DNA of 64,000 bases. Origin: Octopus sinensis. Lineage: Eukaryota. The stretch lies in contig NC_042999.1 in assembly GCF_006345805.1 (NCBI RefSeq), forward strand, positions 155,248,001-155,312,000, read 5' to 3'. Below, in pieces: positions 1 through 63,354 of this stretch. Position 1 is the stretch's first letter; every line of letters starts with the position of its first letter. Position numbers and translations under genes: made by a program. Below the pieces are notes generated by a model. It was not told the origin of the DNA. It was given only the letters and a program-made list of their open reading frames with translations, and did no database searches.

Positions 1-129
1 AAGAAACTGATAAAGGCAAGATTATTGATAAAACCCTCTTACCAATTTCAAGTTTTACCAGGACGTCAGATCCCAGCAGCTACGCTCAAATCACTTTCGG
101 AAACATTAAATGTTCTTCCAGACAGTTTG
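1..129 (+). CDS. Exon 1 in window (5'-truncated); C-terminal end of fibrinogen-like module 0 of a multi-module Caspr-like/EGF protein
   Basis: Frame from nt 3 reads ETDKGKIIDKTLLPISSFTRTSDPSSYAQITFGNIKCSSRQF; donor G|gtaagt, phase 1; IIDKTxLP motif recurs in exons 4 and 16. Confidence 0.9.
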
Positions 130-499
130 GTAAGTAATAAATTCCACATTTTTAAATAGTTGTTGAATCTCATTGAGCAGAACTAAACTTCTAGTTCTCG
201 TTCTCGTTCTGCTGGGTTGTGTCCCCCAATCCGGTTTTGCTTCACATATAGACTAATTTTGCCTTTCTAACACCGAGGGCAGTGCTCCAGAATGACCAAG
301 GCTGTGACGGCTGAAACAAAATAAAGAGATTAGTGAAATAGCTGAAATAGCATGGCCATATGGTAAGAAACTTGATAGCCAGGATTCCGAGTTCAGTCCA
401 ATTGAGTGATACTTCGAAAAATAAATTAGTTAACACTAGACAAGAAAGAAGTCTTAACTGCTGAACAAATGTTTTCTTTTTTAAAAAAATTAAATAATA

Positions 500-850
500 G
501 GCGCAGGAGTGGCTGTGTGGTAAGTAGCTTGTTTACCAACCACATAGTTCCGGGTTCAGTCCCACTGAGTGGCACCTTGGGCAAGTGTTTTCTACTATAG
601 CCTCGGGCCGACCAAAGCCTTGTGAGTGGATTTGGTAAACGGAAACTGAAAGAAGCCCGTCGTATATATGTATATATATATATATATGCGTGTGTGTGTT
701 TTTGTGTCTGTGTTTGTCCCCCTAGAATTGCTTGACAACCGATGCTGGTGTGTTTATGTCCCCGTTACTTAGCGGTTCGGCAAAAGAGACCGATAGAATA
801 AGTACTGGGCTTACAAAAGAATAAATCCCGGGGTCGAGTTGCTCGATTAA
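500..850 (+). mobile_element. tRNA-derived SINE, family A. Other copies: 3987-4415(-), 9318-9622(-), 17737-18297(+), 39299-39505(+), 41309-41700(+), 48017-48300(-), 48785-48870(-), 49320-49725(+), 56473-56600(-)
   Basis: Repeated GGCGCAGGAGTGGCTGTGTGGTAAG...GGGTTCAGTCCC head with A/B-box-like motifs, internal (TA)/(TG) tract, shared 3' part. Confidence 0.85.
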
Positions 851-959
851 AGTAAAGAGAGAGTAATAGAATGCATTTATTTCTGTAATTTCGATAAATT
901 ATTAAAATTTTCCTATCCTTCCTTAATACCGGTTCCCATATGCTACTCATATCTGCACT

Positions 960-1650
960 CTGTCTTCTCAGGAGGTTGTTGTGTCCTAGCATATGTGCTG
1001 CTTCTTTTATTTTTCATATTTTCCAGTGGTGTTCTCTGTCTATAATTTTAACTTCATCCCACAGGGGGAGGTGGTCACCATTTTTCCATATATGATCAGC
1101 TATACCCGATTTATCAGTATCTCCTTGTGTCACAGCTTTGGGATGTTCGTCTACCCTTATTTTGGGAGCGTCATGTTTCACCTTTGTATAACCTAGCACA
1201 GCTGCATGGGATGGAGTACCCGCAGTCTTTGGTTATATTCTCTTCTATTGGTGGTTTTACACGAAGGAGATATTTGCGAAGTGTTGTATTACTTTTGAAT
1301 ACTGTCCTTATGGCATATGGACTGCACATCTTTTGTATCTTTTCGGAGAGGCCTTTTACATAGGTTAGACAGACCATGGACAGTTTATGGGTTTCGTCCT
1401 CTCTTCTCTTCATAATTGGAGTGGATAGTATGTTTTGGGGGTAGTTGTTGCTTAATAGATTGTTACTTAGCTTAATCATTTCTTCGTGGTGTGTATCAGG
1501 ATCACTACTTATATTCTTTGCTCGATGTTTTAGGCACTGAGCAATCCCTCTCTTTACACTGTATGTATGGTGGGAATTGAAGTTGAGGTATCGTCCAGTA
1601 AAGGTCAGCTTGCGATATACGGATGTCCTGAGTCCGTATTCCGAGTTCGA
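960..1650 (-). mobile_element. Penelope-like retroelement fragment (RT C-terminus plus GIY-YIG endonuclease), frameshifted
   Basis: TSVYRKLTFTGRYLNFNSHH..VKRG; YSIPCSCARLYKGET; RVDEH..SGIADH are PLE thumb and GIY-YIG motifs. Confidence 0.85.
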
Positions 1651-1714
1651 TTCCAAGCAGTGACCTAAATAATAATAATAATAATAATAATAATAATAAT
1701 AATAATAATAATAA

Positions 1715-2222
1715 AATATTGAAAGACTTCAGACAAAGAACATGCCTCCTCATTGATATGACTGTCCCAATCGATATAAACGTATCTGTCAAGACCTACC
1801 AAAAACTGAGCAAATATAAAGATCTTGAATAGAAATCAGCAAAATGTGGAAGCTGAAGACTAAAACAATACCTGTTGTCATAGGTGCCCTGGGAATGATA
1901 GCGAAAGGGACTGATTGCTACCTAACTCAGATACCAGGAAACCCCAAAATGGCAGAAATTCAAAAGATAGTGCTCATGGGAACTGCTCATATCCTACGCA
2001 AAATACTCTCTATGTAATCCCAAGGTTTAAAACAAACTTTTTTTATTTATTTTTTATTTTTATTTTTTATTTTTTTATGTATTAGACATTCACTAGTACA
2101 ACACCACAAAAAAAAAAAAGAAACCAAATATATGGCACAGAACTTCCAACCTGTTGTCTCTTGAGGTCTCTGGGTGAGACTTGGAGCCAACTTGTACAGA
2201 CATAAAGCAAAAGTCAAACATA
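1715..2222 (+). mobile_element. 3' end of an R4/Dong-like RLE non-LTR retrotransposon between (AAT)n tracts; second copy 35515-35870(-)
   Basis: CLLIDMTVP..KLSKYKDL..MWKLKTKTIPVVIGALG..GTAHILRK (frameshifted); 3' UTR shared with the 35.5 kb copy. Confidence 0.8.
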
Positions 2223-2296
2223 GAATAATAATAATAATAATAACAACATCGAAAAATACCTTAGGAATGAGAACCCAGGGTTGAAATTTCCCCCAA

Positions 2297-2342
2297 GACA
2301 CCTGATGAAGGCTGGAGGGTATATCAGCCGAAACGTTGTGTT
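2297..2342 (+). ncRNA. Minimal type I hammerhead ribozyme motif
   Basis: GACAC-CTGATGA-a-GGCTG(loop)CAGCC-GAAAC-GTT-GTGTT; stems I and II pair. Confidence 0.65.
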
Positions 2343-60737: not shown

Positions 60738-61488
60738 GTAGAATGCATTCAAAGTATTGTTTACTGCCAATTGCGTTGATTCTTGTAAAGAAATTAAGGT
60801 TAATCACAGTGCCCCAGCATGGTCACAGCCCCTGACTGAAACCTGATTAGTCATTAGTTTAAAATTATTTCCTTCTTTCCATGGAGGTTCCTCTTTGTGA
60901 TGCCTTGCAGGCAATCTATGCATTTCCTGACAAGATACCACTAAAATTGTCATACTTTTATAATGTTAAAAATAATTGGTTTCAATATCATCATCACCAT
61001 GATCAGCATCAGCATCAGCAGCAGCAACCGTTCAAGAATTTGAACCTGGAGATCCCCATTTCCAGCGAATTCGAGGCCCACCTCCCAGTGGTGTCGGGCG
61101 TCAACGAAGAGCCCTCGACTACAAGACGACCAAGGTTTTTTTTCAAGGTCTGGGGTCTCCCGCCCTTAAGCCCTAGACCATCACCTAATCACCCTTACCC
61201 GTCTTGTTGCTTAACAACAACAACAGCAGCAGCAACAGGAGCATCGTCATCATCATCGTCATCGTCGTTTTAACGTTCATTTTTCCATGCTTGCATGGGT
61301 CAGACGGAATTTGTCGGGGCAGATTTTTCTGTAGCTGGATGCTTTTCCTGTCGCCAACCCATGACTGGACATATTTTTATGGAAGACTGAAAACGAATGA
61401 CACCGCTTGTATCATGGAGACACAAGTTTGCAACTATCACACGAAAACGATACACAGACATATCTCACACTCATACACATACACAAAT

Positions 61489-61701
61489 GAGGAGGTGATG
61501 AAAAGTTCCTGGCTGTAAGGGTATCGCGAAACGCTTGGCTGGAGGCCCAACCTTCCAAGTTCTTTTACAGGGCTTAGAAAAACTGAAGGACCACTGCAAT
61601 AAGTGTGTGAATCTGAGAGGGGAATATGTTGAATAAAATCATAATTAACTGATCATCCTGTATTTTCTTTTATCCAAAGCCAGGAACTTTTCAGCACCTC
61701 C
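61489..61701. mobile_element. Mariner-derived MITE
   Basis: TIRs GGAGGTGATGAAAAGTTCCTGGCT / AGCCAGGAACTTTTCAGCACCTCC. Confidence 0.75.
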
Positions 61702-61735
61702 ACCCCTCCCCAGTATATACAAGTATTATGCATAT

Positions 61736-61935
61736 ACAGGGTGCGATGAATAAACTGTCGTCTAAATTACGCAAAAATGAAAACACTTACATCTCATTTT
61801 AACAGATATATTTTTCCAAAATTATATTAAAATATCTTGAAATACTAAAGAGTAAATCTATTCAATAAAATCGCCATTGGCTTCAACCACGGCCTCCATA
61901 CGACTTCGGAATTTCCTGAAACTCTTCTGGACGGT
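61736..61935 (-). mobile_element. Tc1-like transposon 3' remnant
   Basis: TACAGGGTG end; minus strand encodes FRSRMEAVVEANGD, like a Tc1 C-terminus. Confidence 0.55.
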
Positions 61936-62447
61936 CTACTAATAGTTTCTAGTTTCTTACCACAAAGGCAAATGGTTAGGCAGGTTTGTATAATGTGCCT
62001 TGTGTCTCCATGACAAGAAGCTATTTGTAACTCTTATCTTATACAGTGCACATTAAATGAGATTTATTTCTCACTGAATGGAGTACATTTTTTGTTGATC
62101 CTACCTCAACGGAACAGTAAATTATATATATATCCGGATGTGCCAGTACACGCGAGCGTGAGACATGGCCGCCCTGACGCACTTCTCACGAGGAATTCCG
62201 GGCAGAGCTTCGTGAGATCAATGCAGAGACACTTCCGGGGAAAAAAAGGAAAGAAAGAAACCGCTGGAAAATCGATTGTAGCAGTAGCTCGATCAATCCA
62301 TAGGAATATCTGAAGAAGAAATTTTATCATCCGAAATATTATATGAGAGTATGGATAATTAAATTACGTCAGTTACTATAGTCCATTGGTGTTATTATAG
62401 TGCATTGTTGTGCCATTCAAAACACATTATTATTATTTATTATTATA

Positions 62448-63013
62448 TTGGGTTGTCCGGAAAGTTCGTGCCGATTTATAGTAGCTTACCTTTCGACTTA
62501 TTTTAGAACATGGTTGAGTCCATAAAATAGGATTTGACTACACCTCCATTTAGAGCATAGTTTAAGCTACCTTTTCGTGTAAGAAGGTTTATGTTCCTAT
62601 AACCTATGTTAATTCTGTAACCTTTTCAAATGGAAGATAAGAAAGTTCATTTTCGGCACTTGATGCTTTGGGAACCAGACAAAAATTGCTGCAGCTCGGC
62701 TGGGATATGTTACCCCACCCTCCATATTCACCAGATATTGCTCCTTCGGATTTCCACTTATTCAGGCCTCTGCAGAATAGTCTTAATGGTAAAAATTTCA
62801 ATTCCTTGGATGACGTAAAAAGATACCTTGATGAATACTTTGCCATGAAAAAACCTCAGTTCTGGGAAGAAGGTATTTTCAAGTTAAAGGAAAGATGGAG
62901 ACGCATTGTGCAACAAAATGGTTCATATTTGGTTGATTAAAAATGTAATGGCAAGTATTTATTGACCTTTTACTTTCCTTTAAAAATCGGCACGAACTTT
63001 CCGGACGACCCAA
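62448..63013 (+). mobile_element. Internally deleted mariner element (566 bp) with TIRs and TA target duplication
   Basis: TIR TTGGGTTGTCCGGAAAGTTCGTGCCGATTT mirrored at 62984-63013; MEDKKVHFRHLMLWE joined to LPHPPYSPDIAPSDFHLF..LKERW. Confidence 0.92.
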
Positions 63014-63234
63014 TATATACACACTATTGCTTCACCACCATTCTGGCCATCTTCATTTATCCCACTTACCTCAAGTATTTGTTAGAGTTTTGATACGTGT
63101 AATATAATTGATACTTTTTAGACTGACATTAAAAGAATAGAATTAACAGAATTCAATAACATATGTTAATTAATATGCAAATGTACTCTGTATATATAAA
63201 CGTTGTATTCATTTCTCGTTACTTCTTTCTGCAG

Positions 63235-63354
63235 ATGACAATGAATGTCGGCTCTCTATGTGTCCATGGTCATCCAGGTGTTACAATTTACCAGGAACAT
63301 TTAAGTGTGTTTGTTATAACGGTTTCAGACAGACGGGGCCAACATCGTGTGAAG
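63235..63354 (+). CDS. Exon 25; calcium-binding EGF-like domain 2 (gene continues beyond window)
   Basis: ttctgcag|; DDNECRLSMCPWSSRCYNLPGTFKCVCYNGFRQTGPTSCE; G|gtattt; phase 1-1. Confidence 0.94.

Follow-up and report, generated by a model that had tools for sequence, protein, structure and literature searches.

We analysed a 64,000-nucleotide stretch of the Octopus sinensis genome (NC_042999.1, positions 155,248,001 to 155,312,000, forward strand; hereafter the window), which is AT-rich (35% G+C), carries microsatellites throughout and holds part of a gene for an extracellular protein built from tandem modules of ~200 amino acids (aa). Exons were located from obvious seed exons, by tblastn of module against module and by a splice-site scan. 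This gave 25 plus-strand exons between positions 1 and 63354 that join in phase without a stop; the acceptor is AG in 24/24 cases, and the donor is GT in 24/25 and GC in 1/25. The spliced product contains the end of module 1, six full modules and two calcium-binding EGF (cbEGF) domains. A database gene model of 2,612 aa, P0154, matches it at 1,286 of 1,286 residues, and the window covers the central half of this Octopus gene, whose product is predicted to be a secreted glycoprotein of ~2,600 aa or longer. A sequence-only reading of this DNA had proposed 25 phase-compatible exons giving ~1290 aa with no stop, and this structure was recovered here (1,292 aa). The exons and the evidence for each are listed below.

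1..129, plus strand: exon 1, C-terminal end of module 1, truncated where the window starts; P0154 residues 387-428.
2539..2704, plus strand: exon 2, N-terminal subdomain of module 2 with the IDxDG loop; splice and P0154.
5649..5772, plus strand: exon 3, middle of module 2; splice and P0154.
7423..7726, plus strand: exon 4, cysteine-rich loop and C-terminal strands of module 2; splice and P0154.
10628..10711, plus strand: exon 5, start of module 3; splice and P0154.
11574..11662, plus strand: exon 6, module 3; splice and P0154.
15426..15549, plus strand: exon 7, module 3; splice and P0154.
16727..16853, plus strand: exon 8, module 3; the junction gains three residues in P0154, and P0001 enters the exon as in the splice.
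20809..20924, plus strand: exon 9, end of module 3; splice and P0154.
23741..23899, plus strand: exon 10, start of module 4; splice and P0154, weak Pfam COLFI match (E 0.05).
24670..24749, plus strand: exon 11, module 4 with a position-specific additional cysteine; splice.
28209..28320, plus strand: exon 12, module 4; splice and P0154.
31029..31280, plus strand: exon 13, end of module 4, bearing a CxxC specific to this position; splice.
32085..32221, plus strand: exon 14, start of module 5, which has lost the DxD loop; splice.
36001..36229, plus strand: exon 15, module 5; splice and P0154.
39072..39239, plus strand: exon 16, end of module 5, which like its orthologues lacks one disulfide pair; splice.
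41787..41941, plus strand: exon 17, start of module 6; splice, weak Pfam COLFI match (E 0.08).
43195..43323, plus strand: exon 18, module 6; splice and P0154.
44329..44662, plus strand: exon 19, end of module 6; splice.
46002..46127, plus strand: exon 20, start of module 7, DxD in no orthologue; Pfam Fibrinogen_C (E 0.0002), just below cut-off.
49778..49938, plus strand: exon 21, module 7; splice and P0154.
52388..52536, plus strand: exon 22, module 7, ending at a GC donor (alternative GC donor 52518); splice and P0154.
55719..55879, plus strand: exon 23, end of module 7; splice and P0154.
60594..60737, plus strand: exon 24, calcium-binding EGF; Pfam EGF_CA (E 6e-8).
63235..63354, plus strand: exon 25, calcium-binding EGF; Pfam EGF_CA (E 2e-7).

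Exon 22 ends in two in-phase GC donors, 52518 and 52536, 18 bases apart. Use of the first gives a product of 1,286 aa and use of the second (AG/GCAAGT), which is the one in P0154 and in Octopus bimaculoides P0002, gives 1,292 aa. With the second donor the full modules measure 198, 180, 201, 178, 206 and 199 aa, as the sequence-only reading had them after its partial first copy, and the choice of boundary moves one residue between the second and third. P0154 has nine residues more than the 1,286-aa splice, six from the second GC donor and three at exon 8. Another database gene model, P0001 (1,923 aa, close but non-identical), skips or shortens several exons, continues past the second GC donor at exon 22 and runs into a stop there; it was rejected as evidence for an isoform and is regarded as a gene model of lower quality. 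We also dropped a possible additional exon near 28796, exons 12 and 13 being in phase without it and P0154 lacking it. Searching with exon 19 identified two proteins among 43 candidates, namely P0001 (100% on the exon) and O. bimaculoides XP_014781990 (85%), and in sequencing runs this exon was present in 20 of 24 rows from 8 studies, none of them recorded as RNA. Two relatives, 47% identical, lie on contigs of 8.2-8.4 kb, hardly longer than the reading frame, which gives them the look of spliced transcripts. According to P0154 and P0002, the gene goes on downstream of the window into a third EGF and then a VWD domain.

The six full modules share 19-34% pairwise identity. All 15 module pairs scored above shuffled controls (z 4.5 to 38.8), with 0/100 shuffles reaching the real score in 14 pairs and 1/100 in the remaining one, which bears out the proposed back-to-back repetition. 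The cbEGF domains proposed to follow the modules were likewise found, both terminal exons matching Pfam EGF_CA above cut-off. Ten cysteine columns are conserved in the module; position 4 gains four cysteines and position 5 loses two. The acidic DxD loop is retained at positions 1 to 7 in 19/19, 18/19, 19/19, 17/19, 8/19, 17/18 and 0/18 family proteins, respectively. Linkers between modules are a few residues long. All seven module ends fall at phase-1 introns and the introns within modules vary in place and phase, which points to a symmetrical, shuffle-ready module duplicated long ago. The window product holds 17 N-glycosylation sequons; the 'many' claimed earlier amount to a mild excess over the 11.7 expected from composition. 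When 15 of the 25 exons were run against Pfam, no module scored above cut-off, and no single Pfam model spans the whole module.

The sequence-only reading had likened the module to the one found once in Caspr and neurexin IV, and this relationship was confirmed by hhalign of the module alignment A1 against P0098, a protein with discoidin, LamG, EGF and transmembrane regions (probability 100, E 6e-44, 185 columns, 27% identity). The whole protein is nevertheless not a Caspr. Taking the parts outside the window from the gene models P0154 and P0001, the order is a signal-like N-terminus, EGFs, seven modules, three EGFs, VWD(GDPH)-C8-TIL, further EGFs, a Kazal-like, a TSP1-like (WxxWxxC) and a second Kazal-like domain, and a cystine-knot-like tail; 'at least seven' modules became exactly seven. 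In P0154, Pfam matched EGF, VWD and TIL, and C8 is the cysteine-rich stretch between VWD and TIL, without a Pfam match; Kazal, TSP1, C8 and cystine knot were read from motifs, with a Pfam Kazal match in one relative. GDPH lies at residue 1733 of P0154 and is present in 17 of the 19 family proteins that reach the VWD (15/16 plus 2/3). The cystine-knot-like cysteine pattern, sought with a custom expression and without a Pfam match, occurs in 15/18 proteins, and two of the three misses end before the VWD. In P0001, near-identical repeats of ~146 residues that P0154 lacks enlarge the N-terminal EGF region (residues 24-640), through either a recent tandem expansion or a difference in assembly or annotation.

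Pfam found neither LamG nor discoidin in P0154 or P0001, as the earlier claim of no LamG implied, and found both in the control P0098. The highest internal 19-residue hydropathy was at most 1.7 in 14/14 family proteins (1.19 in P0154), compared with 3.71 in P0098, which supports a secreted protein without a membrane anchor. Where the sequence-only reading envisaged a signal peptide or a membrane segment at the ends, extension through the database models gave a signal-like N-terminus (in P0001, by hydropathy) and, in place of any membrane segment, VWD-C8-TIL and the cystine-knot-like tail. Its proposal of a multivalent extracellular protein fits the seven modules and the lack of a membrane segment in these sequences, and true Caspr identity, which it named as the outcome that would overturn it, did not hold. 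A junction or neural adhesion protein of the Caspr/neurexin IV or axotactin type is therefore next to impossible: the homologous module speaks for it, but the full gene model contradicts it, with no discoidin, LamG or membrane segment and with a VWD and cystine-knot-like tail instead.

The fold of the module was predicted with AlphaFold2. Module 2, modelled with 57 sequences, reached a predicted local distance difference test score (pLDDT) of 92.6. Compared with 48,161 representative chains, this model matched the procollagen I C-propeptide (5k31) with Z 15.3 and a root-mean-square deviation of 3.4 over 173 of 201 residues, the only match with Z >=8; the runner-up had Z 5.9 and fibrinogen Z 5.2. 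Foldseek returned 17 matches at E <=0.001, and those listed are procollagen I and III C-propeptides (5k31, 4ae2; E 4e-8). A four-module O. bimaculoides model again matched 4ae2, and an 816-aa O. bimaculoides model (pLDDT 79.2, predicted template modelling score 0.66) repeated the same module secondary structure. The sequence profile aligned with fibrinogen over positions 4-40 only (E 2e-4) and with collagen I over positions 4-92; Pfam COLFI stayed below cut-off on the window exons. The module is thus predicted to have the collagen C-propeptide (COLFI) fold over nearly its whole length, and the label 'fibrinogen-like' of the sequence-only reading suits only the first ~40 positions. This prediction suggests that the 'fibrinogen-like' domain of Caspr is itself a full C-propeptide-fold domain; CATH-Gene3D presumably already places that region in the collagen C-propeptide superfamily. 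In the ESM Atlas the top clusters for the module were COLFI (16-44% of members) and GON (62%) at scores of 0.92-0.93, a lead only, and GON clusters (PF08685, 62-67% of members) at 0.90-0.92 hint at a kinship of GON to the fold. A predicted complex of three module 2 copies scored 0.00 and is evidence for neither side. We make no claim of collagen-like trimers because the collagen stalk, helix and interchain cysteines are missing.

These structural comparisons bear on the possibility that the protein is a secreted pattern-recognition molecule, agglutinating microbes through a row of lectin heads related to fibrinogen. The fibrinogen match over the first 40 module positions points that way, as do the three C-type lectin (CTL) domains of some family members and the presence of the module beside SRCR, C1q, discoidin and SUEL in other proteins. 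However, ficolin and intelectin matched the model at Z 4.5-4.6 only, fibrinogen-related structures as a whole (Z 4.5-5.8) lie within the background of the list, and no complete fibrinogen C-terminal domain, by which ficolins, intelectins and FREPs are recognised, was found. Module number and order are fixed in Spiralia with few copies per genome among the hits, which would be unlike fast-diversifying immune lectins. We consider this function improbable as the main one, and microbe recognition could be a side function within mucus.

A search with exon 4 returned 430 representatives at E <=0.001, with 8 seven-module proteins among the best 150. The array of P0003 retrieved 19 proteins, 15 of them new, the named sources being five bivalve genera, four gastropod genera, the chiton Liolophura and Macrostomum. 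Of the new relatives, 12 have seven module matches (two with one module cut), one is fragmented and one unrelated, and Macrostomum P0166 has five modules and ends within the fifth. A long-protein search gave 14 proteins, 10 matching by EGF only; seven modules were present in long forms from Lineus, Owenia (module 3 short) and Trichoplax sp. H2 and in a second long Liolophura protein. The same architecture, which the sequence-only reading proposed to look for in relatives, is thus found in a chiton, bivalves, gastropods, a nemertean, an annelid and Trichoplax. The Trichoplax protein has 46 Pfam EGF_CA stretches and resembles the family in the VWD region (28%, E 7e-48) and in its 350-residue tail (30%, E 1e-37). 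No seven-module member from cnidarians, deuterostomes or arthropods was among the named hits, these word-based searches being too insensitive to show loss. Liolophura P0158, P0163 and P0168 represent at least three paralogues (short, CTL and long EGF-rich forms) with all seven positions the same. Relatives are labelled 'uncharacterized', 'Zonadhesin', 'FCGBP-like' or 'Fibrillin-1' in the database, and not 'contactin-associated protein-like' as had been anticipated.

To compare the module positions, a tree was built from 159 modules, of which 19 family proteins supplied 131 and single-module proteins (two checked for LamG) 13; 15 were others. P0001, P0002, P0006, P0010, P0011, P0159 and P0165 were left out as partial or fragmented. 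The tree splits by position, exactly for five positions and with one module missing at each of positions 2 and 6; support is 0.95-1.0 for six positions and 0.50 for position 7. The nearest neighbour lies at the same position in another protein for 130/131 modules, which we read as probable selection on each module head. Position profiles made from molluscs only placed 7/7 modules correctly in Lineus, 7/7 in Owenia, 4/5 in Macrostomum and 2/7 in Trichoplax, where module 4 alone joined its spiralian group in a rough tree. The grouping of spiralian modules by position argues that the array is ancient and that the heptad was fixed early in Spiralia.

Outside this family the module occurs in runs of two to four with SRCR, C1q, CTL, discoidin, SUEL, CUB and link domains. 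P0029, P0031, P0017, P0022, P0027, P0034 and P0036 carry two to four copies with link/CUB/SRCR, SRCR, C1q, CTL/FAMeT, discoidin or SUEL, and P0043 (3,748 aa) combines three tandem modules with Sfp1-like domains (3 VWD, 5 SUEL lectin, 3 discoidin, C8, TIL, EGF). Tandem use is itself not unique, and the hallmark of the family is the fixed seven on a VWD backbone.

One member has already been seen in mucus. P-vulgata_2 is a limpet pedal-mucus protein detected in all three mucus types, with ~2,500 aa, 7.8% Cys, a signal peptide, one vWFD, 11 EGF, 2 Kazal and 1 TSP1 (Kang et al. 2020, PMC7333891); its entry in the domain table of that paper mentions neither a cystine knot nor any domain covering the ~1,400-aa array. 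Translation of the two in situ primers for P-vulgata_2, each in three frames, gave five open peptides that were matched to 167 proteins (139,083 residues). Two primer peptides had one exact match each, both in Patella caerulea P0161, at 1331 and 1581, within modules 6 and 7. P0161 is 35% identical to the whole window product and its seven modules group by position with those of octopus. As the primer peptides match P0161 alone, we take P-vulgata_2 to be the orthologue of the octopus protein. The description 'poorly characterised' in the sequence-only reading fits the array, which was undescribed in the open literature searched; this orthologue had already been reported as a protein. That literature, with subscription papers mostly outside its scope, also contained no pairing of COLFI with Caspr.

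P-vulgata_2 is listed as a putative adhesive protein resembling Minona ap1 (PMC7333891), and Minona ap1 knock-down is reported to lower attachment. A dedicated attachment glue, for example of limpet foot, octopus sucker or eggs, is on this ground conceivable. We regard it as a slim prospect: the family occurs in bivalves, a chiton, a tube annelid, a nemertean and a placozoan of very different attachment habits, and the stretch of Mlig-ap1 that holds its domains, as far as the source describes it, spans ~1,550 aa (CTL, VWD-C8-TIL, 17 EGF), which would be too short for seven 200-aa modules.

We propose instead that the protein is a cohesive cross-linker of mucus or of an epithelial-surface matrix, secreted, disulfide-linked and multivalent, and put the probability of this at roughly 55%. 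Secretion without a membrane anchor, as the sequence supports, would be followed by tail-to-tail dimerisation through the cystine knot, as established for von Willebrand factor and mucins. The VWD, in which the motif is present, may then cleave itself at GD/PH, leaving halves that stay disulfide-linked and are more protease-resistant, as in FCGBP; for FCGBP, cleavage at GDPH and its stabilising effect have been demonstrated (PMC10880436). Seven modules, 14 per dimer, would form a fixed row of differing binding heads for glycans or proteins, and the five heads that retain the acidic DxD loop may bind calcium. The corresponding loop of the collagen C-propeptide binds calcium and supports trimers. 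Pfam reported no FCGBP_N, MAM or ZP domain, and there is no proline-, threonine- and serine-rich (PTS) region, the highest P+T+S share per 50 residues being 0.32-0.42 in 18 proteins, so the protein would tie the gel together rather than supply its hydrated sugar brush.

Several observations weigh against this proposal. The N-terminus of P0154 is not hydrophobic (0.93), and the signal peptide is read from the hydropathy of P0001 and orthologues. P-vulgata_2 is not abundant (28 fragments per kilobase per million, against 737 for P-vulgata_1), was assigned to the 'cell membrane' by its authors' prediction and is missing from the five probes with a specific in situ pattern (PMC7333891). None of six short peptide probes was found among the Octopus vulgaris skin-mucus peptides listed in the accessible part of PMC10138644, and the placozoan secretory-cell paper (PMC11452194), in the portion seen, names other VWD proteins and does not place the Trichoplax family member. 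Finally, the long forms of Lineus, Owenia, chiton and Trichoplax have long cbEGF runs that fit a fibrillin-like matrix fibre equally well. Together with the predicted C-propeptide fold, conservation from Trichoplax to octopus, and the low transcript level and lack of a specific in situ pattern in limpet foot, these runs favour an internal matrix protein (fibrillin-like fibre, basement membrane, cartilage or vessel wall) whose heads dock on collagen or on proteins that process it and which would occur in limpet mucus incidentally. We hold this alternative to be unlikely, if a serious one: the limpet protein is in all three mucus types, the set of VWD-C8-TIL with GDPH plus a cystine-knot-like tail belongs to mucus and adhesive scaffolds, Pfam reported no TB domain, and no Gly-X-Y triple helix was found in 18 proteins, the longest runs being 2-4 triplets.

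A broader form of the cross-linker proposal is tentative and rather unlikely. It holds that the family is as old as the split between Placozoa and Bilateria and that its seven helix-free C-propeptide-fold domains form a calcium-tuned multivalent clasp on a VWD/cystine-knot backbone, a core cross-linker of invertebrate mucus. If true, the C-propeptide fold would be shown working as a free binding module in mucus and the array would serve as a soluble model of the central domain in human Caspr proteins. By the predicted fold, the collagen C-propeptide would have been in tandem use outside collagen since early animal evolution. Pfam misses ~1,400 of the ~2,600 residues (the array); with over half of the protein invisible, relatives are misfiled in mucus and bio-adhesive proteomes as 'zonadhesin-like' or 'fibrillin-like' and their largest part is overlooked. 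Naming the array provides a concrete target for work on mollusc mucus cohesion: seven expressible 200-aa domains with position-specific features.

The introns of the window contain frames at 62641-62937 (plus strand), 1017-1728 (minus strand) and 22071-23362 (both strands) that resemble a mariner transposase end, a Penelope-like element and fragments of long interspersed elements; seven such frames gave no meaningful Pfam match. Also within introns, long inverted repeats, one of 590 bases at 91% and one of 352 bases at 94%, lie at 6426-7009 and 20093-20437; a tandem repeat with units of ~400 bases is at 57067-58301.

Among known systems, Caspr/CNTNAP and neurexin IV share the ~200-aa module, with the 10-cysteine pattern fully conserved in P0098. 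Caspr carries it once, among discoidin, four LamG and two EGF domains and a single-pass membrane segment (PMC10084454); the octopus protein has seven copies and is predicted to be secreted. The fibrillar procollagen C-propeptide (5k31, 4ae2) has the same predicted fold over nearly the whole module. In contrast to procollagen, the octopus protein lacks a triple helix, its short linkers leave no space for a coiled-coil stalk, and its copies stand in tandem in one chain; the module adds a six-cysteine loop and lacks a conserved cysteine between the first two, the site of the interchain pair in collagen.

FCGBP, zonadhesin, alpha-tectorin and the gel-forming mucins share VWD-C8-TIL with GDPH, and mucins and von Willebrand factor share the cystine-knot-like tail. 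The octopus VWD with GDPH is followed by C8 and TIL, the arrangement that marks secreted scaffolds. The family, however, has one VWD assembly rather than three or more, and no PTS region; gel-forming mucins are defined by a PTS domain together with three VWD-C8-TIL units at the N-terminus (PMC4948705), of which one VWD and no PTS-rich window were found here. P-vulgata_2, compared through its primers and table entry, is alike in size and in EGF, vWFD, Kazal and TSP1 content. Flatworm ap1 (Mlig-ap1, Mile-ap1) and sea star Sfp1 are likewise secreted scaffolds rich in cysteine, combining CTL or other lectin domains with VWD-C8-TIL and EGF, and are described as cohesive proteins (PMC6745481, PMC6410801 and PMC9382459). 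Long forms of the family share the ap1-like order of CTL, VWD-C8-TIL and many cbEGF; ap1 as described differs in having no seven-module array, and Mlig-ap1 has KR-rich arms. The octopus protein is neither a Caspr nor, by definition, a mucin or a collagen, and would work like the VWD/cystine-knot secreted scaffolds. That kind of backbone, and one orthologue in a proteome, were already known; new here, going by the open literature searched, is the ancient array of seven domains with the predicted C-propeptide fold.

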